The notes: generated by a model from the sequence alone, not told the origin. Shown: positions 38,457-61,974, counted from the first letter of the stretch. The stretch is DNA of 64,000 nucleotides from Candidatus Magasanikiibacteriota bacterium (GCA_016189025.1 JACPGS010000018.1:6921-70920), one strand, 5' to 3'. Translations and numbers: made by a program.

Positions 38457-38566
38457 CTGGTCGCTCGGTCGTGGTAGACACCCTCCGTGCTCGATCCCGA
38501 CTTCGTCGGGACTGCGCGCGTAGGGAACCCGTCTACCACTCCCTCGCTCAGTTTAGTAATTCAAAG
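38457..38566. repeat. Family-A structured repeat with TIR-like flanks
   Basis: gaattacgaaac…ctggtcgctcggtcGTGGTAGAC…cgatCCCGACTTCGTCGGGAct…GTCTACCActccctcgctcagtttagtaattc. Confidence 0.55.
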
Positions 38567-38569
38567 CTT

Positions 38570-41598: not shown

Positions 41599-43695
41599 AT
41601 GGATACAACAGATGCCAGCAAAGCCGCCCTGGCCGAGGCCGCGGCAGCGCCCGCGACCCCGCCCGGCAATCCGGAAATCAATTTTTTTGCCCTCACCAAT
41701 TACCGCAACCAAAACCGGCGGTTTGGCATTAAATTGGACGACCGGCGGCGGCACGTGTACGTGGTCGGCAAAACCGGGATGGGCAAAACCACCATGCTGG
41801 AAAACATGATTTTAAACGATATTTATGCTGGGCACGGCGTAGGCGTGGTGGACCCCCACGGCGATTTGGCCGAAAAAATCCTGGATTTTATTCCTCCCCA
41901 GCGCATCAATGACATTGTCTATTTTAACCCTTCGGACATTGATTATCCCATCGGCTTCAATATCCTGGAAACTATCCGTCCCGAGCAGAAGCACCTGGTG
42001 GCGTCGGGGCTGATGGGCGTCTTCAAAAAAATCTGGCCGGACGTGTGGAGCGCGCGTATGGAATATATCCTCAATAACACTATTCTCGCGCTGTTAGATT
42101 TCCCCGGCACCACGCTCCTCGGCATCAACCGGCTGCTCGCCGACCCCGATTACCGGCGCCGCGTAGTCAACAACGTCAAGGATCCCGTGATCAAGGCGTT
42201 CTGGGTTACCGAGTTCGCCAATTACCAGGACAAATTTCGCACCGAAGCGGTGGCGCCGATTCAGAACAAAATCGGGCAATTTTTATCTGCCTCGGTAATC
42301 CGCAATATCGTCGCCCAGGTGCGCTCGCGCATCAACATCCGCGAAATCATGGACAACAAAAAAATCTTTATCATGAATCTGTCTAAAGGGCGCATTGGCG
42401 AGGACAATTCGCGGCTCTTGGGCGGCATGCTCGTTACCCGCATCCAGCTCGCCGCCATGGAGCGGGTGGATATTCTGGAGCCGGCGCGCCAGGATTTCTT
42501 TTTGTATGTGGATGAGTTCCAGAATTTTGCCACCGAGAGTTTTGCCAACATTCTTTCCGAAGCGCGCAAATACCGCCTTAACCTGATTATGGCGCACCAG
42601 TACATGGAGCAGCTGGACGAAGAAGTGCTGGCCGCCGTAATCGGCAACGTGGGCACTTCCGTAGTATTCCGGGTAGGTTCTACCGACGCCGAGATTTTAG
42701 CCAAAGAGTTTATGCCGACCTTTGTGGAAGAGGATTTGGTGAATCTGCCTAAGTTTCATATTTATCTGAAATTGATGATTGACGGCGTGGCGTCGCGTCC
42801 GTTTTCCGCCACTACACTGCCGCCTTTGGCGCAAGTTACCGGGAGCGCCGCCAAAGTTATCCGCGTGTCGCGCGAGCGTTATGCTACGGCCCGCGATAAA
42901 ATTGAAGATAAAATTATGCGCTGGAGCGGGTTGGTGCCGATGGGAGCGGATGAGGCAGCCAGCCTAGAGGTGGACGAAGAGACGGCGCGCTATGTTACCA
43001 GCCGCCCGGCGCCTAGCTCCGAGCGTAGTCGAGGGGCGCCGGCGCCTAAACCAATTCCTCGCGCCAGCCCGCCGGCGGGGGCCAGGATGGCAACCAGAGG
43101 TCAGCCGTCTGCTACCACCGCGCTCCGAGTCAGTGCGCCGGCTACGCCGATGGTTCAGCCGAAACGCCAGGTAATAGCGTCGGATCAGGCGGCGCGCTTG
43201 CCGGCAGTAACGCCGGGGGCGGAGTTGCCGGCCTCGCCGGCGCCGCTGTCTTTAACCAAGCTATCCTCCCCGCCTGCTCCTTGGGGAGAGCAAAGAAGGA
43301 GAAAGAAAAAACGCCGGCGCGGCGGCTTAATTCCGCCGGGCGCGGTGGCGCCGGTGGTACGGGGCGAGCCGGGCGCGCGGGGAATGTCGCTTAGCGAGCT
43401 GGCGCCAAAATCTGCTCCCCCGGCAACTCGCCCCCCGGTAATTCCTCCGCCGGCAACCCGAATGCCTCCACCCGCCCCCGCCAGCCATCCTGCTCCGCCG
43501 CCAGTTTCTGTTCCCTCGTCTCCTCCCGCCCCATCTGCTCCGGCGAATGTCAGTCCGTCTCCCTCTCCTCTTGATTTAGGTTTTTTGCCTGCCCCGAATG
43601 CAGTCAAAGTGCCGCCTTCTCCTCCTCCCGCTGCCCCGCCTGCCAGGATCTCTCCCAAAACCATCCCGCCGGATCAGGTGATTGAGATTGAGTAA
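41599..43695 (+). CDS. VirD4/TraD/TraG-like P-loop ATPase (type-IV coupling-protein family) with Pro-rich low-complexity C-terminal tail
   Basis: Walker A VVGKTGMGKTTML, Walker B FFLYVDEFQNF. About 230 aa of P/A/S-rich tail. Confidence 0.5.
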   Translation: MDTTDASKAALAEAAAAPATPPGNPEINFFALTNYRNQNRRFGIKLDDRRRHVYVVGKTGMGKTTMLENMILNDIYAGHGVGVVDPHGDLAEKILDFIPPQRINDIVYFNPSDIDYPIGFNILETIRPEQKHLVASGLMGVFKKIWPDVWSARMEYILNNTILALLDFPGTTLLGINRLLADPDYRRRVVNNVKDPVIKAFWVTEFANYQDKFRTEAVAPIQNKIGQFLSASVIRNIVAQVRSRINIREIMDNKKIFIMNLSKGRIGEDNSRLLGGMLVTRIQLAAMERVDILEPARQDFFLYVDEFQNFATESFANILSEARKYRLNLIMAHQYMEQLDEEVLAAVIGNVGTSVVFRVGSTDAEILAKEFMPTFVEEDLVNLPKFHIYLKLMIDGVASRPFSATTLPPLAQVTGSAAKVIRVSRERYATARDKIEDKIMRWSGLVPMGADEAASLEVDEETARYVTSRPAPSSERSRGAPAPKPIPRASPPAGARMATRGQPSATTALRVSAPATPMVQPKRQVIASDQAARLPAVTPGAELPASPAPLSLTKLSSPPAPWGEQRRRKKKRRRGGLIPPGAVAPVVRGEPGARGMSLSELAPKSAPPATRPPVIPPPATRMPPPAPASHPAPPPVSVPSSPPAPSAPANVSPSPSPLDLGFLPAPNAVKVPPSPPPAAPPARISPKTIPPDQVIEIE

Positions 43696-43705: not shown

Positions 43706-43889
43706 AACTGTAGAAGAATACCAGCAAACTTGCTGTTTGGCTGGTCGCTATCGCTATTGCGGTAACTCACTTGGTTGGTCGCGGCAGACACTCTTTGGGT
43801 GCTCCCCCCGCTTACGCGGGGGTGCGCGCCCAAAGACACTCGTCTGCCGCTCCCTGATGCTAACTAGTTGTTCCTATTCTTTTACAGTC
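43706..43889. mobile_element. Family-B MITE-like element, full length with TIRs
   Basis: Left TIR aactgtagaagaatacc, right TIR tattcttttacagtc. The internal structure is almost identical to the 35592..35777 copy. Confidence 0.6.
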
Positions 43890-44751: not shown

Positions 44752-46200
44752 ATGAAGAAGTTAGCTATTCGAGACCCATTTTTGTTCGGCGAATGGTTTG
44801 ACCTAGGATGGTTTCACAGCTGTCATATCTATGGCCATACGATCACCATCAAGGAACGGCTTGGCTATGGGTTAAGTCAGGAAGTGGTAGAACAGGCAGG
44901 CACCATAGAGCGAATTTATTTTTCTCGCTCGGAGTGGACCAGAATTGGTAAGAAATACTTAAGCGAAGTTATCGCCAAACCTGCCAAGTTAAAAAAATTG
45001 CTCTCCGACCTGCGACGCGCTTCGAATCAGCTGCTGGTTTTCTCGCAAAAATTATTCACGGCTGATCCCGCCACCTTTTCCGGACAGCGGTTGGTACGCC
45101 TATTTGAGGCTTATCACGCGCGCCATCACGCGGTGTGGGCGATCGGTCAGGTGCCAAATGTATTGGAATTTCAAAATGCTTTCCTTACTGATTACCTTAA
45201 ACATTGGCTCGCCGGGCAGTCCCTTGCCGGAGCGGAACCGGTTAAAGTTTTTCAAACCTTGGTCACCCCCCGCGAACTTTCGGCCGCCCAGCAAGAGGAG
45301 CGCGCTATGCTGCGTCTGGCAGCGCAAAAAAATCCGGCGGTCGCTTTGCGCAAACATTGGCGCCAATTCAAGTGGCTGCAATTCGGCTGGACCGGCCCTG
45401 ATTTAACCCCGGAGTATTTTATTGACGTGCATCAGCGACTCTATAATGAAGGCCGGGTAAAATCAATTTTAAGCAAAACTTTACTAGCTGACCGGCAATT
45501 GGTGCGCGATAAAGAGCGACTAACAAAACAATTGCACTGCCCGCCTAAGATTAAGACTTTATTCCGCTTGCTGGAAGAACTGCTGTTCCTCAAATCGCAT
45601 CGGATGGATGCTCTCTACACTAGCTATAGCGCTATCCAGCCCTATTTAAAGCACCTGGCCCGCCGACATTATCTGGCGCTGCCGCAGTTATATAATCTTT
45701 ATCTGCCGGAATTAATCGCTATGTTGCGGCAGGGAGCAATTGATGCGGACTATCTTAATAATTTAGCCAAGTATTCGGTACGTTATTACGATGGCAAGCG
45801 TTGGTATTTACTCTTTGGTCAGGAAGCACGGCAAATAACCGAGGCAATCAAGCGTCGTCTGCCGCCTACCCCACTGCTCTCGGAACTTAAGGGAGAATGC
45901 GCCTATCCGGGCAAAGTTACCGGCAAGGTCTATATTATCAATCGGGCCGGGGAAATGGGCAAGTTTGAGTCGGGAGCAATTTTAGTTTCTAATATTACCG
46001 ACCCCTCGCTGTTGCCGGCCATGAAGCGGGCGGCAGCTTTCGTTACCAATACCGGCGGACTCACCTGCCACGCGGCGATTGTGGCGCGTGAGGTGCAAAT
46101 ACCCGGCGTCATCGGCACCAAAATTGCCACGCAAGCGCTCCGGGATGGCGATTTGGTAGAGGTAGACGCGACGGCGGGAGTGGTAAGGAAAATTAACTAA
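44752..46200 (+). CDS. PEP-utilising-enzyme phosphohistidine (swivel) domain protein, paralog 1; divergent N-domain, no ATP-binding domain
   Basis: C-terminus GECAYPGKVTGKVYII…ILVSNITDPSLLPAMKRAAAFVTNTGGLTCHAAIVAREVQIPGVIG…GDLVEVDA has the canonical PEP-utilizers mobile-domain His motif. Confidence 0.8.
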   Translation: MKKLAIRDPFLFGEWFDLGWFHSCHIYGHTITIKERLGYGLSQEVVEQAGTIERIYFSRSEWTRIGKKYLSEVIAKPAKLKKLLSDLRRASNQLLVFSQKLFTADPATFSGQRLVRLFEAYHARHHAVWAIGQVPNVLEFQNAFLTDYLKHWLAGQSLAGAEPVKVFQTLVTPRELSAAQQEERAMLRLAAQKNPAVALRKHWRQFKWLQFGWTGPDLTPEYFIDVHQRLYNEGRVKSILSKTLLADRQLVRDKERLTKQLHCPPKIKTLFRLLEELLFLKSHRMDALYTSYSAIQPYLKHLARRHYLALPQLYNLYLPELIAMLRQGAIDADYLNNLAKYSVRYYDGKRWYLLFGQEARQITEAIKRRLPPTPLLSELKGECAYPGKVTGKVYIINRAGEMGKFESGAILVSNITDPSLLPAMKRAAAFVTNTGGLTCHAAIVAREVQIPGVIGTKIATQALRDGDLVEVDATAGVVRKIN

Positions 46201-46203: not shown

Positions 46204-47277
46204 ATGCTGGACACGGAAGTAGAAAAAATTGTGGCGGCCCTTGACTGGGAAAAACGCTGGATGGAGCGTTTTACCCTTTTTGCCACATCATTAATCGGCG
46301 ACGTCTATTTTTTTGGCTGTCAGGAGCAATTGGGAGTGGCATTCAACCGGATGTTCTTTGTTTACCAGGAAGGGATGGTTACGTGTTATCAGCTGATTTC
46401 AGAAAATACGGTCTTTGGCAACGCGCTGGCGCGCCGTTTGGAGGCGGATCACCATCTGGTTGATGGGTGGAACCGGGAAGTTAAAGATAAAGTTGATGAG
46501 GTTCTTAGTTTGGTTGCCGCCTACGAAGGCACCCTTTTTGAAGAGTCACACTACCTGGCTTTTGAGCACGCTTTTCGCGCACTGCAGCCACCCTTCGTTC
46601 GCTTAACCAGAGTCGCCAATTATCTGGCGCCGTCTTGGCACAATACTTTGTTGCCGCCACTGAATGCCATGCGTCTGGCCACGGAAACGGTATACGGCCG
46701 CGTTGATTCGTTTGTGCAGCGATCATTACGGCAATTAGCCGGCCAGATTGGCCGCGATCCTGATTTGGTAGAACTATTATATCATTATGAAGTGAGGGAA
46801 TTTGTTAAGCAGGGCACTTTGCCACCGGATGCCGAATTAAGAAGCCGTGCGCCGGTTAGCGGATTATATTTTGAAAACGGACGGCAATTCTTTTGTGATA
46901 GTAAAGAAGTTGGCTTATTTCAACGCCTGGTTGCCGATAAATTTGGCTCCCAGGATGGTATTGTTCGCGGGGTCACTGCGGTTCCCGGATATGTGAAGGG
47001 TACGGCGCGAATAATTTTTGACCCCCAAAAACCGGGTGTCTTTAATGACGGCGATATTCTGGTGACTAACATGACGTATCCGGAGTTTGTGCCCCTGATG
47101 AAAAAAGCCGGGGCGATTGTTACCGATGGCGGCGGCATTTTGTGCCACGCGGCCATTGTTGCTCGAGAATTGGGCAAACCCTGCCTGATCAATACCCAGG
47201 TAGCCACCTCGACTTTTCACGATGGTGAGCAGGTGGAGGTAGATGCGACGCAAGGAACAATCAAGAGAGCGGCATAG
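46204..47277 (+). CDS. PEP-utilising-enzyme swivel-domain protein, paralog 2 (shorter, distinct N-domain)
   Basis: …GVTAVPGYVKGTARII…ILVTNMTYPEFVPLMKKAGAIVTDGGGILCHAAIVARELGKPCLIN…GEQVEVDA. Confidence 0.8.
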   Translation: MLDTEVEKIVAALDWEKRWMERFTLFATSLIGDVYFFGCQEQLGVAFNRMFFVYQEGMVTCYQLISENTVFGNALARRLEADHHLVDGWNREVKDKVDEVLSLVAAYEGTLFEESHYLAFEHAFRALQPPFVRLTRVANYLAPSWHNTLLPPLNAMRLATETVYGRVDSFVQRSLRQLAGQIGRDPDLVELLYHYEVREFVKQGTLPPDAELRSRAPVSGLYFENGRQFFCDSKEVGLFQRLVADKFGSQDGIVRGVTAVPGYVKGTARIIFDPQKPGVFNDGDILVTNMTYPEFVPLMKKAGAIVTDGGGILCHAAIVARELGKPCLINTQVATSTFHDGEQVEVDATQGTIKRAA

Positions 47278-47280: not shown

Positions 47281-48804
47281 ATGGAGCCTAAATACCTGCA
47301 CGACAACGACCCCTGGCTGCTCGCCGAGGACATCCCCGGCAGCGATTTGTTTTTCTTTCAAATTCCCTTTTGGTGTTTTGCCAACCGTTTCGGGGAACAA
47401 ACCGGACGAGCGTATAAAAAAGTTTTGGCTCATTTTTCCGGGTATCAGATGTGGTTTTATTTTGGCGAGCAGGATTCTTATGAAGTAGGGGAACATATCG
47501 TTAATCGGATTGTGGAACAGCCAGGCTATGGGGCGGATATTAACCAAAATATCATAGCGATAGCCGACAAATTACGCGCTTGGTGCGCCACCATTCCCGT
47601 GGAAAAACTCAATAATCTTTCCGACGCCGAGTTGTGGGAAATATATCACACGCATTACCAGCTCCATTGCGAATTTTACACCTGGGTATGGATCGGCAAT
47701 GCGACGGACATGTTCCATGCTAATTTTACCAACCGGCTAAAGGCTTACTTAAAACAAATCGGCGTGGTAGAAGACAAGATTAATGAGTATCTGGTTACTC
47801 TGACTACTCCCACCGCGCGAACGCCGGTCTTTGTGGAACAGCAGGATTTGTTGTTGATTGCGGAGCAAATATACCAGGATCAGGCGATCAGGCAGTTGTG
47901 CGCTACTTCCACTCCGCTGGTATACGAAGACCTCCCGCGCCGCCTGCAAACAATGATCCAACAGCACTGGGAGAAGTATCACTATACCAAATTTATTTTT
48001 GTGGAGGGCGAATATACCATTAATGATTATCTCCGGCAGCTGCAAGATATATTGCGCGGCGAAACTGCGCCGCGGGCGATTATTGAGGGACAAATAGAAG
48101 CGCTGCAGGCGGCGGAAGAAAAAAAGCGAATTCTTTTGGCGCAGTTGCCCGTTGCCCCGGAGTGGCAGGAGATATTTGCGGTTTTTGGCGACTTCATGGT
48201 AACCAAAATTTATCGTCGTTATGCCCAGCTTTTTGCCTTGCATCGCATGGATAAAGTTCTTAAGGAAATTGCCCGGCGCAAGCAGCTTTCCCTGAAACAG
48301 GTAAAATTCATGTTGAAAAGTGAAGTAGAGCGGTTGCTCCTCAAAAATTCCTGTGATCCGGAACTGTTGCGGGAACGCGCAAAGCAGTGCGTGTATTATG
48401 TGGAAAAAGATGGCGAGGCAGTATACGTCGGCCCGGCAGCCGAGGCCCTTATTGCAAAAACCGTTCGCACTATTGATGCCTCAATCAGTGAATTGAAGGG
48501 CGAAGTCGGGTGCACGGGTTATGCCCAGGGACGAGTAAAAATTGTTATTCGCGCCGAAGAGATGGCCAAGATGAACGACGGCGATATTTTGGTTTCTATC
48601 GCCACTGACCCGGACATTGTGCCGGCGATGAAAAAAGCCGCGGCGATTGTTACCGAACAGGGCGGCGTTACCAGCCACGCCGCCATTGTCAGCCGCGAGC
48701 TTGGCATCCCTTGCGTCATCGGCACCAAAATCGCCACCAAAATATTTAAGGACGGGGATTTGGTGGAAGTAGATGCGAATAGGGGAGTGGTGAGAAAAAT
48801 ATGA
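47281..48804 (+). CDS. PEP-utilising-enzyme swivel-domain protein, paralog 3
   Basis: …GEVGCTGYAQGRVKIV…ILVSIATDPDIVPAMKKAAAIVTEQGGVTSHAAIVSRELGIPCVIGTKIATKIFKDGDLVEVDA. Confidence 0.8.
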   Translation: MEPKYLHDNDPWLLAEDIPGSDLFFFQIPFWCFANRFGEQTGRAYKKVLAHFSGYQMWFYFGEQDSYEVGEHIVNRIVEQPGYGADINQNIIAIADKLRAWCATIPVEKLNNLSDAELWEIYHTHYQLHCEFYTWVWIGNATDMFHANFTNRLKAYLKQIGVVEDKINEYLVTLTTPTARTPVFVEQQDLLLIAEQIYQDQAIRQLCATSTPLVYEDLPRRLQTMIQQHWEKYHYTKFIFVEGEYTINDYLRQLQDILRGETAPRAIIEGQIEALQAAEEKKRILLAQLPVAPEWQEIFAVFGDFMVTKIYRRYAQLFALHRMDKVLKEIARRKQLSLKQVKFMLKSEVERLLLKNSCDPELLRERAKQCVYYVEKDGEAVYVGPAAEALIAKTVRTIDASISELKGEVGCTGYAQGRVKIVIRAEEMAKMNDGDILVSIATDPDIVPAMKKAAAIVTEQGGVTSHAAIVSRELGIPCVIGTKIATKIFKDGDLVEVDANRGVVRKI

Positions 48805-48865
48805 AGAAACGAATCTGGCGAAAAAATTTTGTTATCAGGAGCAGGGAATTTTTAGCCTGAATAAT

Positions 48866-50374
48866 ATGGCCCAGGACTACACCATCTTCGTCCGCGATTT
48901 TCAGACCAGCCTGTTTCCGCAGTATATTTTAACGCACTTGTGGAACACCAGCGGCGTGGTGAATACCAAAGCGCAGATTGGCATGGCGAATCGGAACAAA
49001 GTGCTGGAGTACATTATTCCGCCGGGCGATTGGGAACATTTGCAAACGCAGGTACATGAGCGAACTGCCGCCGACCGAAATTTTATTCCCCAGGCCGTGC
49101 GCCAGGCGCGGGCGGCCGTAGATGCACTTAATGAGTATACAGAACAGCAAATAGCGCAGAAAGATTTGACCTGCGCCAGCAACGAAGAATTAGCCGAGAT
49201 TTACCGGCGCTATTTTGAGCTGAACATTCCCTGTTATGGTTACGGCAACATCATTTTTATTATTGAATTCGGCGAGCGCGCTTATTTTAGCAATCAAATC
49301 AAGCAGCTCTTGGCCGCGCGTGCGCCGGAACAGCCGGCAGCGTATTTTACTTTACTGACCACTCCGGCGGAACCGCACATTTTTCAGGAGCAAAGTTTGG
49401 CTCTGCTCCAGCTGGCCAGCGCCATTGAATTGCAAACCGAGATTAAAGATTGGTTTTTGGCAAACGCCGGCGCGGGCATTGAACATCAGCTATTAGCGAA
49501 ATATCCGGCAGTGCTTGAGCAGTTCCAAAAACATCGCGCTGCCTACTACTGGCTGTTTTACAGCTGGGAAGGCCCGGCGCTGACGGTGGGCGATTTTGTG
49601 ATGTTTGCCGTGGATATTTTACGGCGCGGGTCGGCCGGCGCGCAGTTAGCAGAAAAAAAGGCAGAACAGGCCACGCTCGGCACGCGTCAGGAAAAGATTA
49701 TGCAGGAGCTGCACTTTTCCGAAGAAGAGCGCTGGTGGGTAAAAATGGCGCAACTATGCGCCGCGTTCCAGCCCTATCGCAAAGCGCGGCAATTCAAATC
49801 CTGCAGCCACATGGAAAAGTATTTCCGGGAGGTAGCGCGGCGATTATATATCAGTCTGGATCAGGCGCGGTATCTTACTCATTACGAAGTTGCCGAGGCG
49901 CTACGCAAGGGCGAAGTAGACACTAACCTGCTAAACGAACGCCGCAAATTTTTTGTGTATATTTTTGATAATAACCAGCCGCGGTGTCTTACCGGTTCCC
50001 CAGCCGAAGCGTGGTATCAAGAACACGTGGCACAAGAGATGCATCAATTTTCCGGAGAACTACGCGGCACGGTCGCCTGCCCGGGCCGGGCCACGGGAAA
50101 AGTGCGGATGGTGAACAGTTACGAAGAAGGCCAACAGTTTCAGCCAGGTGAAATTTTAGTTTCATTTTCTACTAACCCCACCCTTCTGCCGGCGATGCGC
50201 CTGGCCGCGGCGATTATTACCGAAGAAGGCGGGCTCACCTGCCACGCGGCCATCGTCAGCCGCGAGCTCAACATCCCTTGCGTGGTGGGAATTAAGGGGA
50301 TTGTTTCCGGACTGCAAACTGGCGAAACAATAGAAGTGGATGCGATAAAAGGGTTAGTTAAAAAATTATCCTGA
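48866..50374 (+). CDS. PEP-utilising-enzyme swivel-domain protein, paralog 4
   Basis: …GTVACPGRATGKVRMV…ILVSFSTNPTLLPAMRLAAAIITEEGGLTCHAAIVSRELNIPCVVG…GETIEVDA. Confidence 0.8.
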   Translation: MAQDYTIFVRDFQTSLFPQYILTHLWNTSGVVNTKAQIGMANRNKVLEYIIPPGDWEHLQTQVHERTAADRNFIPQAVRQARAAVDALNEYTEQQIAQKDLTCASNEELAEIYRRYFELNIPCYGYGNIIFIIEFGERAYFSNQIKQLLAARAPEQPAAYFTLLTTPAEPHIFQEQSLALLQLASAIELQTEIKDWFLANAGAGIEHQLLAKYPAVLEQFQKHRAAYYWLFYSWEGPALTVGDFVMFAVDILRRGSAGAQLAEKKAEQATLGTRQEKIMQELHFSEEERWWVKMAQLCAAFQPYRKARQFKSCSHMEKYFREVARRLYISLDQARYLTHYEVAEALRKGEVDTNLLNERRKFFVYIFDNNQPRCLTGSPAEAWYQEHVAQEMHQFSGELRGTVACPGRATGKVRMVNSYEEGQQFQPGEILVSFSTNPTLLPAMRLAAAIITEEGGLTCHAAIVSRELNIPCVVGIKGIVSGLQTGETIEVDAIKGLVKKLS

Positions 50375-50381
50375 TAACATT

Positions 50382-51947
50382 ATGGCGATGGCCAAGGCGC
50401 TACGGCGCGATCGCTGGATTGTCGGCAATGAAGAAGACGGCACTAATTTGTACGCGCTCGGTTTGTATACGCCGATGTTTATTGTTGATTTTCCCCGGCT
50501 GGCCCAAGCGCCGCCTTGCTATCACGTATTTGAATTCAAAGGCGGCCATATGCGCTGGCTGGTGCCGGAAAATCACTCGCTCGCAATCGCCCGGCTTTTG
50601 TTGGAGCGCGTCCTCCGGCGTCCTAATTATTTTGGCGAAATCAGGCAAAAATTGGCGCGCATTTGCCATCAGGCTTATGCTTTTGGCAGGCAAGTTTTGC
50701 GGCTGAAAGTAGGAACTATCAGCGACGCCAGGTTATTATCACTACTGATGCGTTTTCAAAAATTGCAACGCACCATTATCGCCTATGGCATGATTTCTAC
50801 TTTAGTTGAAATACCCCACAGCCAGTTTGTTAAGCACCTGGAGAATTTTCTGGCTGATCACGTCAGCAAAATTAGCGCGCCGCCTGGCGCCCCTGAATAT
50901 TTTAGTATTCTTTCGGCGATTCCCGAAGAGAGTAGGCAGCGCCAGGAAGCCAAAAGTTTGCTGCGGTTATTGCAGACGGTGAAAAAATCTAAAAAATTAT
51001 TTAACGCCGTCGCCTCACTTAAACCAGGGGAGGGTAGCAAAAAATTTTTACGGCCTCCAGGCGATCCGGCAATGTTATCCTTTTATCGGCAGCTCAATTA
51101 TCATGTCAAAGAATTCTGCTGGGCGTATTATGGCTACGAAGGACCGGCGTACGGTATTGACCGCCCCCTTTCCGAGCTTGCCCAACTGCTCTCCGATAAA
51201 GTAGACCCGGCGGCGGAGCTAAAGCGTTTAGCCCGGGAGCGGGCGCAAATCAGGCCGGCGACCAAAATAGCCGAGCGTACCCTGAAGCTATCGGCTTACG
51301 AGCGCGCCTTATTCCAGGCCCTGCGCGATACGGTGTTTATGAAGCTTTATCGCAAAGACGCCATGACTTTTGGGTTTTATTCCGCCGAGTCATTGCTTAA
51401 AGAATTGGCGCGCCGGGCCGGCATTGCTTTAGCCGCCGCTAAATGTTTGGCGCCGGGCGAATATGCGCGGGCATTGAGGCAGGACAAAAAATTGATTGCC
51501 GAACTCTATCGGCGGATTCCGTATGCCGTATATGCGGCGGATTCTCTTAAACCGCGGGTATTATCCGGTAGTCGCGCCCGCCGGTTTATTAAAAGTATTT
51601 ACCGCGAGGAAGCGGTCGGCGATGTCCGCGAGCTCAAAGGCCAGGTGGCCTGTTTAGGGCACGCTACCGGCGCGGTAAAAATTATCAACGTCGCGGCGGA
51701 AATGGGCAAAATGAATAAGGGCGATATTTTAGTGTCCATCGCCACGATTCCCGATATTGTGCCGGCGATGAAAAAGGCGGCCGCGATTGTTACCGAGCAG
51801 GGCGGCATTACCTCTCACGCCGCCATCGTCAGCCGCGAACTCGGCGTCCCCTGCGTCATCGGCACCAAAATAGCCACCAAAGTATTTAAGGACGGGGATT
51901 TGGTAGAGGTGGATGCCATTGAGGGAATTGTGTACAAGCTCAAGTGA
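50382..51947 (+). CDS. PEP-utilising-enzyme swivel-domain protein, paralog 5
   Basis: …GQVACLGHATGAVKII…ILVSIATIPDIVPAMKKAAAIVTEQGGITSHAAIVSRELGVPCVIGTKIATKVFKDGDLVEVDA. Confidence 0.8.
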   Translation: MAMAKALRRDRWIVGNEEDGTNLYALGLYTPMFIVDFPRLAQAPPCYHVFEFKGGHMRWLVPENHSLAIARLLLERVLRRPNYFGEIRQKLARICHQAYAFGRQVLRLKVGTISDARLLSLLMRFQKLQRTIIAYGMISTLVEIPHSQFVKHLENFLADHVSKISAPPGAPEYFSILSAIPEESRQRQEAKSLLRLLQTVKKSKKLFNAVASLKPGEGSKKFLRPPGDPAMLSFYRQLNYHVKEFCWAYYGYEGPAYGIDRPLSELAQLLSDKVDPAAELKRLARERAQIRPATKIAERTLKLSAYERALFQALRDTVFMKLYRKDAMTFGFYSAESLLKELARRAGIALAAAKCLAPGEYARALRQDKKLIAELYRRIPYAVYAADSLKPRVLSGSRARRFIKSIYREEAVGDVRELKGQVACLGHATGAVKIINVAAEMGKMNKGDILVSIATIPDIVPAMKKAAAIVTEQGGITSHAAIVSRELGVPCVIGTKIATKVFKDGDLVEVDAIEGIVYKLK

Positions 51948-51955
51948 TTTGTGTT

Positions 51956-52360
51956 ATGGAAAAAGCAGAGATGTGGTTAACTCGTTTTATTGCTTGGGCG
52001 AGAATTAAAACCAAAATTCATCTTGCCGAACGGGAAATATATTTTCGTGAGGGAGAAATTTGGTGGACTAGCTTAGGCGTGAACATTGGCCATGAGCAAG
52101 ATGGGAAGAATGAATATTTTGAACGGCCGGTATTGATTTTAAAGAAGTTTGGCAGGTATACTTTATGGGCTGTTCCTTTGTCGAGCCGCCTTAAGTATAG
52201 TCCTTATTATTTTCAATATACTTACCATGGGAGAAATTATTCTGCTTTACTTACCCAATTACGGTTGATTAGTAGTAAAAGGTTATTGAGAAAGGTTGGA
52301 GTGATTGATGTTATGGTATTTCGGGCTATTAAAGAAAAGATAAAAAAATTATTACAATAA
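51956..52360 (+). CDS. MazF/PemK-like endoribonuclease toxin-fold protein in a low-G+C insert
   Basis: REGEIWWTSLGVNIGHEQDGKNEYFERPVLILKKF…WAVPLSS compares with the PemK/MazF pattern RGDIYWVDFGPPVGSEQGGRRPALVVS…PLT. Confidence 0.45.
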   Translation: MEKAEMWLTRFIAWARIKTKIHLAEREIYFREGEIWWTSLGVNIGHEQDGKNEYFERPVLILKKFGRYTLWAVPLSSRLKYSPYYFQYTYHGRNYSALLTQLRLISSKRLLRKVGVIDVMVFRAIKEKIKKLLQ

Positions 52361-52540: not shown

Positions 52541-52822
52541 ATGGCACTGGGGCAGCTGACGTTAGCGGTATACGGCGACGTGCAGGGCGTGGGGTTCCGC
52601 TGGTTTGTGCAAGAGCAGGCGGTTAAGCTCGGTCTAGTCGGCTGGGTACGCAATAATCCGGATGGTACGGTCGGCGTCGTTGCCCAAGGAGTCGAGGAAA
52701 AGTTGCGTGAATTTTTGGCGCTCTGCCGCCACGGCCCGGGTTTTGCCCGCGTGCGCGAGGCGGTGGAAGAGTGGCAGGAAATTCCTAAACTGGACTTTGT
52801 CGATTTTGAGATTAAGTTTTGA
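52541..52822 (+). CDS. acyP: Acylphosphatase
   Basis: VYGDVQGVGFRWFVQEQAVKLGLVGWVRNNPDGTVGVVAQG is the canonical acylphosphatase signature (VxGxVQGVxFR … GWVxN). Confidence 0.85.
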   Translation: MALGQLTLAVYGDVQGVGFRWFVQEQAVKLGLVGWVRNNPDGTVGVVAQGVEEKLREFLALCRHGPGFARVREAVEEWQEIPKLDFVDFEIKF

Positions 52823-52834: not shown

Positions 52835-54370
52835 ATGAATCAGCGACAGTTTAAGAAATATTTGGGCGAGGCAGAGGCGCTGCATAGTGAATTCGGGGTA
52901 ACACCGCTGACGATTACACTAATTCAGCACGGTTTTCATCATCCTTTGTTAAAGAAGTATTTGCGTGAATGGTATTTGCCGACGTCGGTAGTTGAATGTA
53001 TCGGCGATAAAATTAATTGGTTTATTAGTGCCGATTTTTTGCGTGCCCAGGAACATTTTGTCGTTGATACCATCAAAAGAGATCGTTCTCTGGTAAAAAC
53101 CGTCATCCGCGAGTCAAGACGACAAGGGAAGGCCATTGATTTAATTGTTCGTAAGATTGACACAGCGTCCAGCAAGGGAGTTACTGCTAAGCGAGCTGCC
53201 CTCTTATTGATCAAGTTATTTGCGGCCATGGAGCAGCTTTGTGCGTATGGTTTTATTGCAGTTTTAAGTGATTTATATTATTTTACTTTCACTCGCGAAC
53301 TAACTACGCTAATAGAACAATATGCCGCTTCGCAAGGATCAGCGCAACCCGTCAAAGAATACGTGAGCATCTTGATAACTCCTACTGTAAAGACCGTTAC
53401 CTGGAAATATAAGCAGGCCTTGTTTCAATTAGCACTGAAGATAGCAAGATTAGGGATAACCCGTCCCGCTAATCCGCCCAAATTAATTATCAGTAACAAA
53501 ATATTGTTAAAGCAAGCTCAACAAATCGTTCGTGAATTTTATGCCGTAAATTATGGTCATCGCGGTCCGGCACTGACTCTTAAAGCAATAATTTCTGAAG
53601 TCGCCGATCTCGTTAGCAAAAATAAAGTGCATCGCGCCTATCGCGCCTTTATATCCGAACATACCGCTATCCGAGCCAAACAATGTCGTTATATTCGCCG
53701 GTTAAAACTTAGCAAACAAGCGGTATATTTACTAGAAGCTGCCAAACAGTTTATCTATATTAAAGGATTTCGTTTAGAAAAACTTTATCAATCCTATGCC
53801 GCCATTGATCGGTTATTGTCTCAAGTGACTGATCATAAAATATCGTTAGATAATCTTAAACGTTGTTCTAAGTTTGAAGTACTGCGCTTCTTAAAAGATG
53901 GCAAGCTGCCGACAGCCCGCGAGTTAACCAGACGTACAAGACACTTGACGTATACGGCTTGGCAACATACCAAAGCCAAAATTCGCACTGGCGCCGCCGC
54001 TGGTCGTTATCTTCAGACTTTCGTCGCTAAAACCAAAGATAATAAAGTACGTTTTTCCGTTCACGGTAACATTGCCTGCGCGGGACGAGCGACCGGCACG
54101 GCAAAAATTGTCCAAAGCGGCAAAGATATGCAAAAAGTACGTGAGGGAGATATTTTAGTGGCGGTGCAAACTATTCCTGAATTGCTACCGGCGATGAAAA
54201 AAGCCGCTGCTTTTGTTACTGATATTGGAGGCATCACCTCCCACGCAGCAATCGTTAGTCGCGAAATGGGCAAGCCCTGTGTAATTGGCACGCGAGTGGC
54301 TACCCAGGTGTTTAAAGACGGAGATTTAGTGGAAGTAGATGCCATTAAAGGTATCGTGCAAAAGATATAG
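52835..54370 (+). CDS. PEP-utilising-enzyme swivel-domain protein, paralog 6 (AT-richer, most divergent)
   Basis: …GNIACAGRATGTAKIV…ILVAVQTIPELLPAMKKAAAFVTDIGGITSHAAIVSREMGKPCVIG…GDLVEVDA. Confidence 0.8.
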   Translation: MNQRQFKKYLGEAEALHSEFGVTPLTITLIQHGFHHPLLKKYLREWYLPTSVVECIGDKINWFISADFLRAQEHFVVDTIKRDRSLVKTVIRESRRQGKAIDLIVRKIDTASSKGVTAKRAALLLIKLFAAMEQLCAYGFIAVLSDLYYFTFTRELTTLIEQYAASQGSAQPVKEYVSILITPTVKTVTWKYKQALFQLALKIARLGITRPANPPKLIISNKILLKQAQQIVREFYAVNYGHRGPALTLKAIISEVADLVSKNKVHRAYRAFISEHTAIRAKQCRYIRRLKLSKQAVYLLEAAKQFIYIKGFRLEKLYQSYAAIDRLLSQVTDHKISLDNLKRCSKFEVLRFLKDGKLPTARELTRRTRHLTYTAWQHTKAKIRTGAAAGRYLQTFVAKTKDNKVRFSVHGNIACAGRATGTAKIVQSGKDMQKVREGDILVAVQTIPELLPAMKKAAAFVTDIGGITSHAAIVSREMGKPCVIGTRVATQVFKDGDLVEVDAIKGIVQKI

Positions 54371-54377
54371 ATTTTCT

Positions 54378-54998
54378 ATGATTGCCAAAAAAAATATTAA
54401 ATTCATTATCTTTGACGCCTACGGCGTCTGCCTTACCGGCGGGTATCCGGATACCTGCCGGTATCTGGCCAAAAAGTTTAACCGCGATTGGCAAGATATT
54501 TACGCTGTCCTTTATACCAAATATTTCAATCAGGCCGCTACTAAGCAAATCACCCAACAGGCGGCCTGGGCCAAGGCGCTTAAAGAGCTTAATTTTCCCT
54601 TAACAGTGGCCGCGGTTAAGCGGATTCATTATCGTCTGATGGGTTTGAATTGGCCGGTACTGAAAATTGTGCAAAAAATAAGCGAAAAAGTTCCTGTTCT
54701 GTTGTTAAGCAAAAATACGCGGAGCCAATTCAAAGACATTAATAATAAATTTCCCCGGTTGAGGCAAATTTTTGGCCAGCACATTATTAATACCTGGGAG
54801 TATAACCTGCCTAAAGCCAGCCCGGAAACGCTAGCGATGATTTTTAAGCGATATCATATTACCGACCCGGCCACGGTAGTGAGCATTGATGACCAAGACA
54901 ATAATTTAGTGGCGGCGCGGGAATTGGGCGTTAATGCTATTTTGTATAGAAATTTTGGTCAATTCAAGCGCGAGCTTGCTCGGCTGATTAACATTTAG
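54378..54998 (+). CDS. HAD-superfamily phosphatase
   Basis: Motif I IIFDAYGV and motif IV SIDDQDNN. Start placed at the internal ATG 54378. Confidence 0.65.
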   Translation: MIAKKNIKFIIFDAYGVCLTGGYPDTCRYLAKKFNRDWQDIYAVLYTKYFNQAATKQITQQAAWAKALKELNFPLTVAAVKRIHYRLMGLNWPVLKIVQKISEKVPVLLLSKNTRSQFKDINNKFPRLRQIFGQHIINTWEYNLPKASPETLAMIFKRYHITDPATVVSIDDQDNNLVAARELGVNAILYRNFGQFKRELARLINI

Positions 54999-55002: not shown

Positions 55003-56529
55003 ATGCGCCAGAAATATCATCAGGGTGCATGGTCGCTCTTGTCGCAGCGCCAGCGAATGAGCCCGTTTCCCAATTACTTGTCCATGGAAGCGGTGTGCCG
55101 CGAGATGAAGCAGTTCGTCGGTATCGCGTTGCGCGACGTTATTTTATTTTTCCAGGGCAATATCATGTTTGCTTTTCAGCCTTTGCTGTCGCACCAGCGC
55201 GCGGCGCGCTTGATTGCCGACCGCGTGCAAAAAAATCCGCGCCTGTATGCTGGTTTGATTAAAAAACAACATGGCTACGGAAAAAATTTAGTAAACTTTG
55301 CCCGGCAGGCGGCGCGCCAGACTAGGCGGGGCAAGGCTTCTCCCCAGCAATTATGCGATTGGTTTACCGGCTACGCCCAGCGATATAAATTAGTTTATGC
55401 CTCGTACGGGTCGGTTTGGACAATGGAAGACGAGCTAGTCGGAGATCTTTATGCGCTGGTGGAAAAGCGAATAAAAGATCCGCTTGAGGCCAGCAATATC
55501 TTAAATACGCTCACCAAACAGCCGCTGGCGATGGTGGTCACCCGCGAACGCCAGGCATTATTGAAAATGGCAATGAGCATTGCTTTACATCAGGAATGGC
55601 AGCAGGCGGTGAGGGCCGGCGAGTGGTCAGGGATTAAAAAGTATCAGCCGCTCCTCCGACTGATTACCGCGCACCAGAAAAAATTTTACTGGATCACCCG
55701 CGATTATGAAGATCCAATTTTGACTAATGAAAAAATTATTGAGCGGCTGCGGCAGGTATTGGCAGGTGATGTTGCCCAAGAATATCGTCAATTAACAGAT
55801 GCTTTAGCCAATGACCTCGCGGCGAGAAAGCGCTATGAAAAAGAACTACGGCTCACGGCGGCAGAACGCCAACTCTTTGCCGCGATGCGCGATGCCGCCC
55901 ATCTTAAAGAGCTGCGCAAACAATATGTTTCATCATCGCTTTATCATTTTGATTCAGTACTGGCCGAGATCGGGAAACATTTGTATTTAAGCATCAAGCA
56001 AGTGCGCTTTATGCATACCGCAGATGTCGCCGCGGCCCTGCTTAAAGGTCGGGATTTAACCCGGGCGCTTAACGAGCGGATGAAACTATCAATGTGGCAT
56101 ACGGTGGATGGCCGCGATACCAAAGTCAGTGTCGGCCCGGAGGCCGCGGCAATGTTTGCCCGGTTTTGTACGGTGGATAAGAATACCAGAGAATTTACCG
56201 GCATGCCGGTTTCCCCTGGGTTGGCGCGCGGCCCTGCTAGGTTGGTGATGAATCCGGACGAGTGCGACAAGGTTCAGAAAGGTGATATTATTGTGAGCAT
56301 TCAGGTGGTGCCGAGTTTTTCCACCGCTATTATCAAATCCGCCGGCATGGTCTGCGACGGCGGGCACGGCATCACTTCGCACCCGGCCACCCTGGCCCGC
56401 GAAGCCAAAATACCCTGCGTTATCCAAACCCGCTTTGCGCGGGAGGTAGTGAAAGATGGTGATATTCTGGAGGTAGATGGGTATCAGGGTGTGGTACGAA
56501 TTATTGACAAAAAGGATGCCGGGAGATGA
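55003..56529 (+). CDS. PEP-utilising-enzyme swivel-domain protein, paralog 7
   Basis: …GMPVSPGLARGPARLV…IIVSIQVVPSFSTAIIKSAGMVCDGGHGITSHPATLAREAKIPCVIQ…GDILEVDG is a variant His motif (SHPATLARE). Confidence 0.75.
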   Translation: MRQKYHQGAWSLLSQRQRMSPFPNYLSMEAVCREMKQFVGIALRDVILFFQGNIMFAFQPLLSHQRAARLIADRVQKNPRLYAGLIKKQHGYGKNLVNFARQAARQTRRGKASPQQLCDWFTGYAQRYKLVYASYGSVWTMEDELVGDLYALVEKRIKDPLEASNILNTLTKQPLAMVVTRERQALLKMAMSIALHQEWQQAVRAGEWSGIKKYQPLLRLITAHQKKFYWITRDYEDPILTNEKIIERLRQVLAGDVAQEYRQLTDALANDLAARKRYEKELRLTAAERQLFAAMRDAAHLKELRKQYVSSSLYHFDSVLAEIGKHLYLSIKQVRFMHTADVAAALLKGRDLTRALNERMKLSMWHTVDGRDTKVSVGPEAAAMFARFCTVDKNTREFTGMPVSPGLARGPARLVMNPDECDKVQKGDIIVSIQVVPSFSTAIIKSAGMVCDGGHGITSHPATLAREAKIPCVIQTRFAREVVKDGDILEVDGYQGVVRIIDKKDAGR

Positions 56530-57727: not shown

Positions 57728-58600
57728 ATGCCTAGAGAATTATCAGCCGAACCACAACGGGAGCAAGAACGCCGGCCGGAAAATTTTATCACGGCCTATT
57801 ATATGCGCCACGGTGAAAGTTCATCTGATAAAAATGATCCGTTGCGCGGGTTAACCGATAAAGGGATAGAGCAGGTACGAAAGGCAGTAGAGCGGGTAGC
57901 GTCAGAAATTCCCGATAAGAATTCACAAATTCGGCTATATAGCAGTGGCAGCGAACGCACCCGGCAGCAGTGCATTGTGGCGGCTGCGGTGTTACGCGAT
58001 GCCAATTTTACCAATATCACGATTGATGCCAATTCTTTGCCCGAAAAGCGCGCCGAGTTAACCGGCAAGGGAGTGCGCTTCACCAAAATCCTTTCCGGCG
58101 ATGAATTAAAAGAAGCGCAGGCAGCGACGATTGCCCAGTTAGGTTTGCGCCAAGAGGGCCCCGGCATTGGCAAAAGAATCGCGGAACTCAAAGCGCCTAA
58201 AGAATATCCGACTAAACTTAGGGGGTTGGAGGCTGATACCGGGATTAGTGCGGTAGTCCATTGGCTAACGGATAAAGAAGTGCCGGCCGGAGCAGAATCG
58301 CGAGCGCAAAAAGCTGCCACGGTAGCTAAAGCAGTAGAGATTGCCAATCGCTGGGCAGAGCACATGCGCCGCGCTGCGGAAAAAGGCAAAGAAGTTAAGC
58401 CAATGGTGGCTTTAGCATTCGGTCATTCTTCGGCGCTCACTGCCTATGGCGCTGATGTTTTTGGCTGGCAAGGTGAAGAGTTGGCAGAGGTAGAAAACGC
58501 CGAAGGATTAAAAATAGATTTCTCTGGTATTGCCGACGAAACACCCCGTATTCAGCCATTCGGCGAGAAGATTGAGGCCAAGGTAAATCCTATCGGATAA
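57728..58600 (+). CDS. Histidine-phosphatase-superfamily protein (phosphoglycerate-mutase / SixA-like)
   Basis: FITAYYMRHGESSSDKNDPLRGLTDKGIEQ is the RHG catalytic motif, and VALAFGHSSALTAY is the second catalytic His. Confidence 0.8.
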   Translation: MPRELSAEPQREQERRPENFITAYYMRHGESSSDKNDPLRGLTDKGIEQVRKAVERVASEIPDKNSQIRLYSSGSERTRQQCIVAAAVLRDANFTNITIDANSLPEKRAELTGKGVRFTKILSGDELKEAQAATIAQLGLRQEGPGIGKRIAELKAPKEYPTKLRGLEADTGISAVVHWLTDKEVPAGAESRAQKAATVAKAVEIANRWAEHMRRAAEKGKEVKPMVALAFGHSSALTAYGADVFGWQGEELAEVENAEGLKIDFSGIADETPRIQPFGEKIEAKVNPIG

Positions 58601-59941: not shown

Positions 59942-60955
59942 ATGTCGCATTTAAAATTTTTTCCCGATCTTACCAAAAAAGATGTGGCAATAGCCGGCGG
60001 CAAGGGCGCGTCGCTCGGCGAACTGACGCGAGCCGGAATTCCGGTGCCGCCCGGGTTTGTGGTGCTGGCGGCGGCTTGGGACAGATTTTTAGAAGAAACC
60101 GATCTTAATGCCGAAATTATGGCGCGACTCAAAGAGGTTAATCCGGCTGATACCAATTCAGTGGATCGGGCCAGCAATGTTTTGCGTGATGCGATTCATG
60201 ATCGGTCGCTGCCGGCTGATTTAGGCGAGGAGATTTTGGCGGCGTTTGACGAGTTAGGGAGTAAAAAGTCGGGGGCTCGGAATGACAGCGCGTGTTTGGT
60301 AGCGGTGCGATCGAGCGCGACCGCCGAGGACTCGGCAGTGGCGAGCTGGGCCGGTGAGCTGGAAACGTATTTGAACACCAGGCGGGAAAATGTTTTAGAG
60401 CGAGTGAAACTATGCTGGTCGTCGCTTTTTACCCCGCGCGCTATTTTTTATCGCCACGAAAAAAATCTGATTGATCATTATGTATCGGTCGCGGTAGTAG
60501 TGCAGCAAATGGTGCAATCAGAAATCTCCGGCATTGCTTTTACCGTGCATCCGGTAACCGAGGACCGGGACCAGATGATTATTGAAGCGGGATTTGGCCT
60601 CGGCGAAGCGATTGTCGGCGGCCAGATTACGCCGGACTCGTATGTAGTAAGCAAGAGCGAGATGAGTATTATTGATATTAATGTTAGTACCCAGACCAGA
60701 AAGTTAGTGAAAAAGGTAAAAGGGGGAAAGGGACAAACCGACGAGGAAAATAAGTCTAACGAATGGGTAGATTTGAGTGAAGCGGAAGGAGGCCGGCAAA
60801 AGTTAAGCGGCCAGCAGATTATTGAGCTGGCGGCGATTTGCCAGAGGATTGAAAAACATTACGGATTCCCCTGCGACATTGAGTGGGCGTATGAGGGGGG
60901 AAAATTCTACGTTACCCAAAGCCGGCCGATTACGACCTTAAAAATCCGCGGTTAA
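59942..60955 (+). CDS. Stand-alone PEP-synthase / pyruvate-phosphate-dikinase-type N-terminal ATP-binding (ATP-grasp) domain protein
   Basis: …DVAIAGGKGASLGELTRAGIPVPPGFVV…CLVAVRSSATAEDSAVASWAGELETYLN…SGIAFTVHPVT…QMIIEAGFGLGEAIVGG…GFPCDIEWAYEGGKFYVTQSRPIT matches PPDK_N motifs throughout. It ends without a His domain or a PEP-binding domain. Confidence 0.8.
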   Translation: MSHLKFFPDLTKKDVAIAGGKGASLGELTRAGIPVPPGFVVLAAAWDRFLEETDLNAEIMARLKEVNPADTNSVDRASNVLRDAIHDRSLPADLGEEILAAFDELGSKKSGARNDSACLVAVRSSATAEDSAVASWAGELETYLNTRRENVLERVKLCWSSLFTPRAIFYRHEKNLIDHYVSVAVVVQQMVQSEISGIAFTVHPVTEDRDQMIIEAGFGLGEAIVGGQITPDSYVVSKSEMSIIDINVSTQTRKLVKKVKGGKGQTDEENKSNEWVDLSEAEGGRQKLSGQQIIELAAICQRIEKHYGFPCDIEWAYEGGKFYVTQSRPITTLKIRG

Positions 60956-61031: not shown

Positions 61032-61484
61032 ATGCCTCCAAGCAATACCAAACAGACAGCCGGGGAAAGTCAAACGCTCGGGGAGATTTTAGAAATCGTC
61101 CAATTTATTAAGGACAACGCGGCTAGCCAGGTTAGCGTGGATAAGTTAGACGAACGCGTTAGCTCTCTTGAGGACAAGGTGTCATCGCTTGACGATAAGG
61201 TGTCGTCACTTGATAGCAAGGTGTCATCGCTTGATAGCAGGGTGGCTGCTTTAGAAAATGCAGTAATCCAGGGATTTGCCGAAATGCACCGCCGTTTTTC
61301 TCAAGTGGATACGGAATTGGATTCTATTTATCGCGAATTGGAAACTATTAAAAAAGAATTACAGCAGTTAGATAAACGGGACGCCGAGGATGCCAATGCT
61401 TTGGCTCATGACGTGCTGACTTTAAGGGAGCGTTTGGAACAATTGGAACAGCGGCTGCGACAGCTGGAGTTAGCGCGTGCTTAG
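61032..61484 (+). CDS. Coiled-coil protein with 9-aa tandem repeats ((D/S)KVSSLD)x4
   Basis: …ERVSSLEDKVSSLDDKVSSLDSKVSSLDSRVAALEN… is encoded by about 27-bp tandem nucleotide repeats at 61155-61262. Confidence 0.5.
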   Translation: MPPSNTKQTAGESQTLGEILEIVQFIKDNAASQVSVDKLDERVSSLEDKVSSLDDKVSSLDSKVSSLDSRVAALENAVIQGFAEMHRRFSQVDTELDSIYRELETIKKELQQLDKRDAEDANALAHDVLTLRERLEQLEQRLRQLELARA

Positions 61485-61644: not shown

Positions 61645-61974
61645 ATGGCATTTGATTCTCCCCGGCAGATGTACCCGGTCAACGAGAAGTGCGCCGGTTG
61701 CGGCGTGGCGATTACCGAGCTGCCCTTCCAACCGACGGCGGGTCGCCCGGTGTACTGCACCGATTGCAATCGTCAGTATCGCGATCGGCGGCGCGGCGGT
61801 GGTGGCGGTGGCGGCGGCATGAGCCGCGGTCCGCGCCAGATGTACGCCGTAGACCTGCAATGCGCCGGCTGCGGCACGGCTATTACCGAGCTGCCGTTCC
61901 AGCCCACCGGCGATCGTCCGGTTTATTGCCGCACCTGCCTGGCCGCTAAACGCGGCAGCGCGATGGCAGCCTAA
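61645..61974 (+). CDS. Small protein with two tandem CxxC…CxxC zinc-ribbon repeats joined by a poly-Gly linker
   Basis: PRQMYPVNEKCAGCGVAITELPFQPTAGRPVYCTDCNRQY is repeated as PRQMYAVDLQCAGCGTAITELPFQPTGDRPVYCRTCLAAK, with RRRGGGGGGGGM between them. Confidence 0.55.
   Translation: MAFDSPRQMYPVNEKCAGCGVAITELPFQPTAGRPVYCTDCNRQYRDRRRGGGGGGGGMSRGPRQMYAVDLQCAGCGTAITELPFQPTGDRPVYCRTCLAAKRGSAMAA

Follow-up and report, generated by a model that had tools for sequence, protein, structure and literature searches.

The 64-kb window analysed here, by which we mean the whole stretch of DNA under study, comes from a metagenome-assembled genome (MAG) of Candidatus Magasanikiibacteriota, and all window coordinates are counted within that stretch. 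It carries seven paralogous genes on the same strand (+), P1 to P7, each of which encodes a PF00391 'PEP-utilizers mobile' (swivel, phosphohistidine) domain at its C-terminus. The genes lie at 44752..46200 (P1, 482 aa), 46204..47277 (P2, 357 aa, with a short N-domain), 47281..48804 (P3, 507 aa), 48866..50374 (P4, 502 aa), 50382..51947 (P5, 521 aa), 52835..54370 (P6, 511 aa) and 55003..56529 (P7, 508 aa), with PF00391 matched at E=4e-27 in P3, E=1.9e-24 in P5 and E=3e-14 in P7, where the His motif is a variant, CDGGHGITSHPA. P3 and P5 have the same architecture, a substrate-binding domain resembling that of rifampin phosphotransferase (RPH) followed by the C-terminal swivel His domain, which spans aa 432-502 (48574-48786, +) in P3 and aa 445-515 (51714-51926, +) in P5. 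The N-terminal parts of the seven paralogs (270-440 aa) returned no match in a Pfam scan. By tblastn the window holds exactly seven swivel domains and a single stand-alone ATP-grasp gene (PPDK_N; 59942..60955, +, 337 aa, PF01326 E=1.8e-95), whose product resembles the N-terminal domains of phosphoenolpyruvate (PEP) synthase and RPH; no second PPDK_N copy was found by tblastn within the 64 kb, and, as a gene count, the common ATP-binding partner proposed in the initial annotation of this sequence is borne out. Here we report that P3 and P5 share a 147-nt tract within their swivel-coding regions whose synonymous sites agree beyond what codon usage and protein constraint provide, and which is probably the trace of an old gene conversion between them.

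The similarity of the 3' ends of P3 and P5 had been noticed in the initial annotation, and it is real. Each of the four strings quoted there is present in two copies and no more, at 48616/51756, 48646/51786, 48712/51852 and 48743/51883, always with the same offset of 3140 nt, and when the window was compared with itself by blastn the top internal match in the 64 kb was 48535-48792 vs 51675-51932 (81.9% over 260 nt, E=6e-67). The description of about 200 nt as nearly identical was overstated: aligned without gaps, the copies agree at 83.6% of positions in 48590-48790 and at 89.8% in a 147-nt core (48616-48762 / 51756-51902), i.e. the two genes differ at about one base in six over the longer interval and one in 10 in the core, and the longest exact runs are 20, 14, 20 and 22 nt. 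The partner of the first interval is 51730-51930 and not 51700-51905, which is about 25-30 nt off. The 1.2-1.3 kb upstream, said to be unalignable, is indeed near random at the DNA level (identity about 0.37 in a codon alignment), yet homology of the N-terminal parts is evident in their proteins, which tblastn aligns at 21% identity over 427 aa (E=4e-17). In protein sequence the P3 and P5 swivels agree at 87% of residues in this genome, and in each genome sampled the swivels of the two families share about 85% of theirs.

How much of this DNA identity follows from the protein alone was judged from orthologs, for which contigs carrying three P3 orthologs and two P5 orthologs were compared. Full-length orthologs of P3 number more than 100, at 44-66% identity, and come from Patescibacteria and Nanoarchaeota; the P5 family is rare, with four orthologs in the protein database and four in JGI metagenomes (35-52% identity), and P1, P6 and P7 likewise have orthologs in other genomes. 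The swivel domain of P3 matches that of its ortholog L001_2005 at 73 of 77 residues (95%), and still the two are only 76.6% identical as DNA, with identical codons at 28 of 71 positions where 26.6 are expected; the swivel regions of the other orthologs are 71-76% identical as DNA, with saturated synonymous sites. Amino-acid constraint by itself thus gives roughly 70-77% DNA identity in the swivel, with scrambled codons, and accounts for most of the identity between P3 and P5; the excess over 70-77% alone needs explaining. Measured by protein, the nearest relative of the P3 swivel is its ortholog, and measured by DNA it is P5 (0.818 vs 0.766 for the ortholog, the genomes differing in GC). A caution of wider use follows, namely that about three quarters of the DNA identity seen between conserved domains is due to protein constraint, and that a real signal emerges only from synonymous sites tested against orthologs.

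Such a signal is present between P3 and P5. At degenerate codons for residues identical in the two swivel domains, 43 of 65 codons are identical. Window-wide codon usage predicts 26.9 (z 4.2), the codon usage of the N-domains 24.8 (z 4.8), and a model in which the codon is conditioned on the residue and the next base 28.4 (z 3.8); when the swivel codons were shuffled within each gene among positions with the same residue, 29.8+-3.3 identical codons were obtained, and none of 3000 shuffles reached 43. The N-domains of the same two genes are at expectation (34 of 89 identical codons vs 36.4, z=-0.5). P6 served as an internal control for these codon tests: 57 of 77 residues of its swivel (74%) are identical to those of P5, and its codons show no excess (27 of 56 identical vs 21-23 expected). 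By the Nei-Gojobori method (NG86), synonymous divergence (dS) between P3 and P5 is 0.69 in the swivel domain and saturated in the N-domains; dS of P3 and of P5 against every ortholog is saturated or above 2. In the one other genome with both families, the corresponding pair (P3' and P5') shows no excess of shared codons (z 1.3) and a dS of 1.75-2.5.

In so old a tract, where exact runs do not exceed 22 nt, scoring of the longest identical runs in the manner of GENECONV is not informative. We localised the signal instead with a binomial change-point scan that took in every site of the two genes at which P3 and P5 have the same residue. The maximum-likelihood segment comprises alignment columns 491-540, which correspond to 48616..48762 (+) in P3, i.e. 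codons 446-494, in the swivel/His domain and including the catalytic TEQGGVTSH motif, and to 51756..51902 (+) in P5, where the motif reads TEQGGITSH. Within this segment 35 of 45 codons for identical residues are themselves identical, vs 42 of 109 outside it (permutation p=0.0025), and NG86 gives a dS of 0.35 and a nonsynonymous divergence (dN) of 0.046; the remainder of the swivel is at baseline (8 of 20 codons). Along the diagonal at offset 3140, identity rises from 0.33 through 0.53 and 0.77 to 0.87-0.93 and then falls to 0.70 and 0.37. The upstream flank lies at 0.5-0.6, and the drop to 0.70 and then 0.37 occurs over the final ~40 nt of coding sequence and past the stop codon; the last ~13 codons of the two genes differ (DANRGVVRKI in P3, identical to its ortholog, vs DAIEGIVYKLK in P5).

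We regard a single old, local interlocus gene conversion as the best explanation of this tract, and a probable one. Bounded on both sides and internal to the genes, the tract fits gene conversion better than a single crossover or a fusion. P3 and P5 belong to two old, distinct families, and the event would have taken place in the lineage of this genome once it had separated from every relative sampled; a short homologous recombination of the non-reciprocal kind would then have copied about 150 nt of swivel-coding DNA between genes 3.1 kb apart in the array, and differences at about 10% of sites would have accumulated in the tract since (dS about 0.35). Either gene may have been the donor. The setting is favourable to conversion, as P3 and P5 lie on the same strand of the same tandem array, 3.1 kb apart, and share exact runs of 14-22 nt that could act as substrates. 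The comparison of dS by domain, proposed in the initial annotation, shows that it is not uniform (saturated in the N-domain, 0.69 in the swivel, 0.35 in the core). Of the two causes offered there, recent recombination between the paralogs or very strong constraint, each has its part, with constraint behind most of the identity and inter-paralog recombination as the best explanation, although a dS of 0.35-0.7 makes the event old and not recent.

The protein likeness of the P3 and P5 swivels is a separate and older matter. All eight P5-family orthologs have a closely P3-like swivel (five of the eight keep TEQGG and the rest have AERGG or TEVGG), and the N-domain of P5 resembles P3 no more than it resembles other families; on these two grounds the likeness is ancient, reflecting either an early exchange of domains or the retention of a slowly evolving type. 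The likeness would have given the later 147-nt event, specific to this lineage, the homology that it required. The N-domain ortholog groups of P3 and P5 also occur together on one contig of another organism (L006_1631, L004_10001). A profile search of genome contigs with the P5 N-domain, for further genomes with both families, found no relative, and in a scan of metagenomes four P5 orthologs were found on contigs of 2.7-6.7 kb, with a P3 ortholog beside none of them.

Gene conversion between tandem paralogs with mosaic divergence has been described for TLR1 and TLR6 (PMC2077338), and interlocus conversion between tandem copies for HMA4 (bioRxiv 10.1101/2025.10.29.685298). As in those cases, the paralogs here are in tandem on the same strand, a bounded inner segment is far lower in synonymous divergence, and a conserved domain is homogenised while the part that determines specificity is divergent. 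Unlike in those cases, P3 and P5 are not young duplicates but anciently diverged families (N-domains 21% identical), and their tract is short (~150 nt), old (dS ~0.35) and seemingly a one-off, not a product of recurrent homogenisation. The tract would represent an ordinary process of tandem gene arrays, a textbook one, in the unusual place of a streamlined genome of the candidate phyla radiation (CPR) and between anciently diverged families; it would mean that for tandem paralogs to recombine in this CPR genome, exact matches of no more than 14-22 nt suffice.

Most of the codon sharing is found among P2 to P5, which are contiguous genes, and this too favours conversion. The swivel regions of P2 and P3 (z 3.9), P2 and P5 (z 3.1) and P3 and P4 (z 3.5) also show an excess, and P1 shows none against P3 or P5. 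The best segments of these three further pairs are short and individually weak (p 0.015-0.08), and the weaker sharing among P2, P3, P4 and P5 suggests older or shorter conversion patches.

Several points weigh against conversion as the source of the P3/P5 tract. It is short (49 codons) and old, and contains no long run of perfect identity. The genome with both families available for comparison is a single one (n=1), so that the term lineage-specific rests on that genome. The window has a GC content of 54% and its relatives 37-50%, a shift that confounds comparisons between genomes; as it would group sequences of the same genome artefactually, we relied mainly on within-genome nulls instead of cross-genome four-taxon or third-position trees. 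At the variable position of the GG[I/V]TSH motif, P5 has the Ile typical of its family (ATT) and P3 has Val (GTT), and the Ile kept in P5 requires a back-mutation, a mosaic tract or transfer in the reverse direction. The pair P2 and P7 shows a mild excess (z 2.1-2.9) that is not explained by adjacency. Finally, site-specific synonymous selection peculiar to this genome may, formally, give rise to the same pattern.

It is unlikely that no exchange took place at all and that amino-acid constraint on a very conserved swivel, together with the codon preferences shared by genes of one genome, produced the match. This explanation draws on orthologous swivels that are still 70-80% identical as DNA with saturated synonymous sites, on the P3-like swivel of eight out of eight P5 orthologs (five with TEQGG), which makes the protein likeness ancient and family-wide, and on the GC content at third codon positions (GC3), which is higher in the P3 and P5 swivels (0.64 and 0.69) than in the N-domains of these two genes (0.55 and 0.57). 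However, nulls conditioned on the residue, on the codon usage of the gene and on the neighbouring base leave a z of about 4, and the four nulls described above (genome usage, N-domain usage, within-gene shuffling and next base) rule out codon bias as the sole cause. Protein constraint as the sole cause is ruled out by P6 (27/56 codons with a 74% identical swivel) and by the orthologs (28/71 vs 26.6, at up to 95% identity), and neither these nor the P3'/P5' pair of the other genome show any excess. Moreover, the excess between P3 and P5 is restricted to the 147-nt segment.

A broader form of exchange was implied by the initial annotation, which saw concerted evolution of the swivel domain in the array while the N-domains diverge. 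In this form, an ongoing array-wide process would match all swivels to the single ATP-grasp partner and the P3/P5 tract would be only its most visible trace, a proposal in keeping with seven swivel genes for one PPDK_N gene and with the extra codon sharing among P2, P3, P4 and P5 (z 3.1-3.9). We nonetheless consider it improbable. The swivels keep family-specific signatures across genomes, and these travel with the N-domains ('AAFVTDIGGITSH...SREM.KPC' in P6, 'CDGGHG.T.HPA' in P7 and 'SIATDPDIV...TEQGGVTSH' in P3); by protein, the nearest relatives of the P3, P6 and P7 swivels are orthologs and not paralogs of the same genome. The 101 pairs compared within genomes have an average z of 0.6, a single pair from outside the window attains z>=2.5, the other genome with both families gives z=1.3, and the arrays in L002, L005 and L004/L006 are essentially without within-genome excess. 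The proposal of concerted evolution is thus not upheld, nor is that of the N-domain as the diversifying module, as the N-domains are old, conserved and distinct families (more than 100 orthologs at 44-66% identity for P3, and orthologs also for P5, P6, P7 and P1). That a single ATP-grasp protein might serve all seven paralogs and shape the evolution of their swivels is plausible.

Selection on the nucleotide sequence itself, through an RNA structure, an internal regulatory site or an overlapping element, might also preserve synonymous sites. Compared with its shuffles, the P3 copy of the tract does show better folding (z=-2.8); neither the P5 copy (z=+0.2) nor the equivalent region of P6 (z=+0.7) does so, no Rfam match was found anywhere in the window, the sole antisense open reading frame (ORF) under either copy is one of 42 aa over P5 with no equivalent in P3, and the orthologs show no synonymous conservation; we therefore consider such selection very unlikely. 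A recent duplication of the whole gene, after which the N-domains diverged extremely fast under diversifying selection and the swivel was held constant, comes near to the diversifying N-module of the initial annotation and would reconcile N-domains ~21% identical with swivels 87% identical, but it is scarcely credible and is refuted by the ortholog data, as the N-domains have separate ortholog sets (more than 100 proteins for P3) and both families occur on one contig elsewhere, which puts their split before that of the lineages, and as it requires a dN/dS well above 1 over ~430 codons (N-domain dN 1.13 vs swivel dS 0.69).

Gene conversion apart, the array is of interest in itself, and to us it is the more valuable lead. 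P1 to P7 are probably RPH-like substrate-binding and His-swivel subunits of two-component small-molecule dikinases, an assignment based on sequence motifs, a structural model and analogy with characterised enzymes. A separate ATP-grasp protein would charge the swivel His, and the swivel would pass the phosphate on to a substrate held by the N-domain. P3 was modelled with AlphaFold2 from 60 orthologs (pLDDT 92.6), and the best Foldseek matches of the model in the PDB, which take in both the substrate-binding and the swivel domain, were the structures of Listeria rifampin phosphotransferase (5fbu, 5hv1 and 5fbt; E~1e-12), with a TMq of 0.54-0.59 over ~580 alignment columns; the next-ranked PDB matches covered the swivel only. 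The modelled N-domain is helical and RPH-like. The predicted phospho-accepting His is invariant in all seven paralogs, TEQGGVTSH in P3 and TEQGGITSH in P5 fit the motif T/SxxGGxxxH, and the P7 variant, CDGGHGITSH, is kept in its orthologs L001_5718 and L006_11406.

At the level of sequence the paralogs stand apart from the named families. The NCBIfam models RPH, PigC and RedH align with the final 100-170 residues in several paralogs, at scores well under the cut-off, and the RPH equivalog model NF041857 scores 53-74 bits against a cut-off of 999 in alignments of the C-terminus only, which places the paralogs outside that equivalog. Like PEP synthase and PPDK, the system has homologous swivel and ATP-grasp domains, for both of which the top sequence matches are PEP synthase. 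Unlike in those enzymes, the PEP/pyruvate-binding TIM barrel (PF02896) is absent from the Pfam scan of the seven paralogs, in which PF00391 alone was matched, and the N-domain is helical and RPH-like; against the NCBIfam PEP-synthase models, no score of the paralogs comes near the cut-off (129 vs 598 bits, for instance).

Closer parallels are the two-component RPH homologues HpeHI, CreHI and PpsAB (the last a phenylphosphate synthase), in which the substrate-binding subunit has its swivel His phosphorylated by a separate ATP-grasp subunit (PMC12167813). The charged swivel subunit, which carries the motif T/SxxGGxxxH, then phosphorylates a small molecule (PMC12167813). Enzymes of this type are defined by an ATP-dependent dikinase activity (ATP -> AMP + Pi + phospho-substrate) for which both components are needed. 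The locus described here resembles them in combining an RPH-like substrate domain and a C-terminal swivel with that motif in one protein, in encoding a separate PPDK_N protein of ~340 aa nearby and in having no PEP/pyruvate TIM barrel. Those systems are 1:1 gene pairs with His subunits of ~70 kDa and phenolic substrates, found in Actinobacteria and Proteobacteria; here, in contrast, seven His subunits of ~500 aa (one of 357 aa) and of different families accompany one ATP-grasp gene in a CPR bacterium, genes for an acylphosphatase, a HAD hydrolase and a histidine phosphatase are interspersed, and sequence identity to RPH is ~15%. RPH itself is a single chain of 860 aa with the ATP-grasp domain fused N-terminally, whereas the ATP-grasp domain here is encoded by a separate gene. 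There is no evidence for rifamycin as a substrate.

Taken further, it may be imagined that one ATP-grasp protein charges the swivel His of all seven RPH-like subunits, like one head with many arms, that conversions were retained because they kept the swivels compatible with this partner, and that the system is conserved in CPR bacteria and DPANN archaea and coupled to dedicated phosphatases. We offer this scheme as a speculation that is, as a whole, rather unlikely; if true, it would be a modular way of organising small-molecule phosphorylation that is new for ultra-small symbionts. The array belongs to a large uncharacterised set of split RPH-like subunits, which in Patescibacteria and Nanoarchaeota are arranged in arrays together with one ATP-grasp gene and several phosphatase genes; P3 matches more than 5000 database proteins, many possibly through the widely shared swivel alone. 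Knowledge of the substrates could help to explain the scavenging or detoxification of small molecules by these symbionts. In the literature we found no description of such CPR dikinase arrays, the sole trace being a passing count of 'rph' in a screening of the CPR resistome (PMC8651080).

Orthologs of the PPDK_N gene lie downstream of the arrays in L001 (74% identity) and L009, and downstream of a lone P3 ortholog in L003. In the latter locus (L003 10001-12944) there is no array, and an OMP-decarboxylase gene stands between the single P3 ortholog and the PPDK_N gene downstream. Given this lone pair, and given that P3 is by far the most widespread family, P3 and the ATP-grasp protein may be the ancestral core from which the arrays grew.

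Three kinds of phosphatase gene are embedded in the dikinase locus. An acylphosphatase gene (52541..52822, +, 93 aa, PF00708 E=1.8e-25) lies within the array just upstream of P6, a HAD-family hydrolase gene (54339..54998, +, PF00702) lies within the array at a position kept in L001 and L006, and a gene of the histidine-phosphatase superfamily (57728..58600, +, PF00300 E=2.5e-6) lies between the array and the ATP-grasp gene, syntenic in L001 and L006. Their presence hints that the products of the array might be phosphorylated, possibly acyl-phosphate, small molecules. P6 has a GC3 of 0.39-0.42, vs 0.49-0.69 in the other six paralogs, and may have a history different from that of the rest of the array, as a later acquisition. 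P6 comes after a MazF/PemK-like toxin gene (51944-52360) that overlaps the stop codon of P5, with no obvious antitoxin gene upstream of it. Upstream of the dikinase genes, a gene for a TrwB/VirD4-like (DUF87/HerA-type) ATPase is found in the window (41599-43695), in L002 (2646-4883) and in L003 (5869-7587); it adjoins the dikinase genes in some loci and is one or two genes off in others, a conserved neighbour with no evident link to them.

In the public annotation of the source MAG the two genes are shorter, at 364 aa (HYV42_02885) and 399 aa (HYV42_02895), each 72% of the query that we used. The 507-aa ORF of P3 aligns end to end with full-length orthologs, and the P5 N-domain query is 98% covered by its orthologs; the deposited N-termini of P3 and P5 thus appear to be under-called.

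The window also contains other repeats. A repeat of ~85-105 nt is present in at least nine copies of two subfamilies, 76-92% identical and on both strands, at 14758-14864(-), 24546-24652, 29056-29162, 34519-34612, 38460-38568, 35655-35760, 43768-43872, 16410-16515 and 29990-30095(-), and possibly at 9856-9941; the copies are mostly intergenic or lie over mechanically called ORF starts. RNAalifold predicts a long imperfect hairpin of 26 pairs, eight of them with compensatory double changes (for example GUGGUAGAC/GUCUACCAC vs GCGGCAGAC/GUCUGCCGC), and no match was found in Rfam 15. Possible identities for this repeat are a REP/MITE-like element and, alternatively, a structured RNA or a terminator repeat peculiar to the genome. 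A direct repeat of 100 nt with 76% identity (61659-61758 vs 61830-61929) lies downstream of a coiled-coil ORF (61032-61484).

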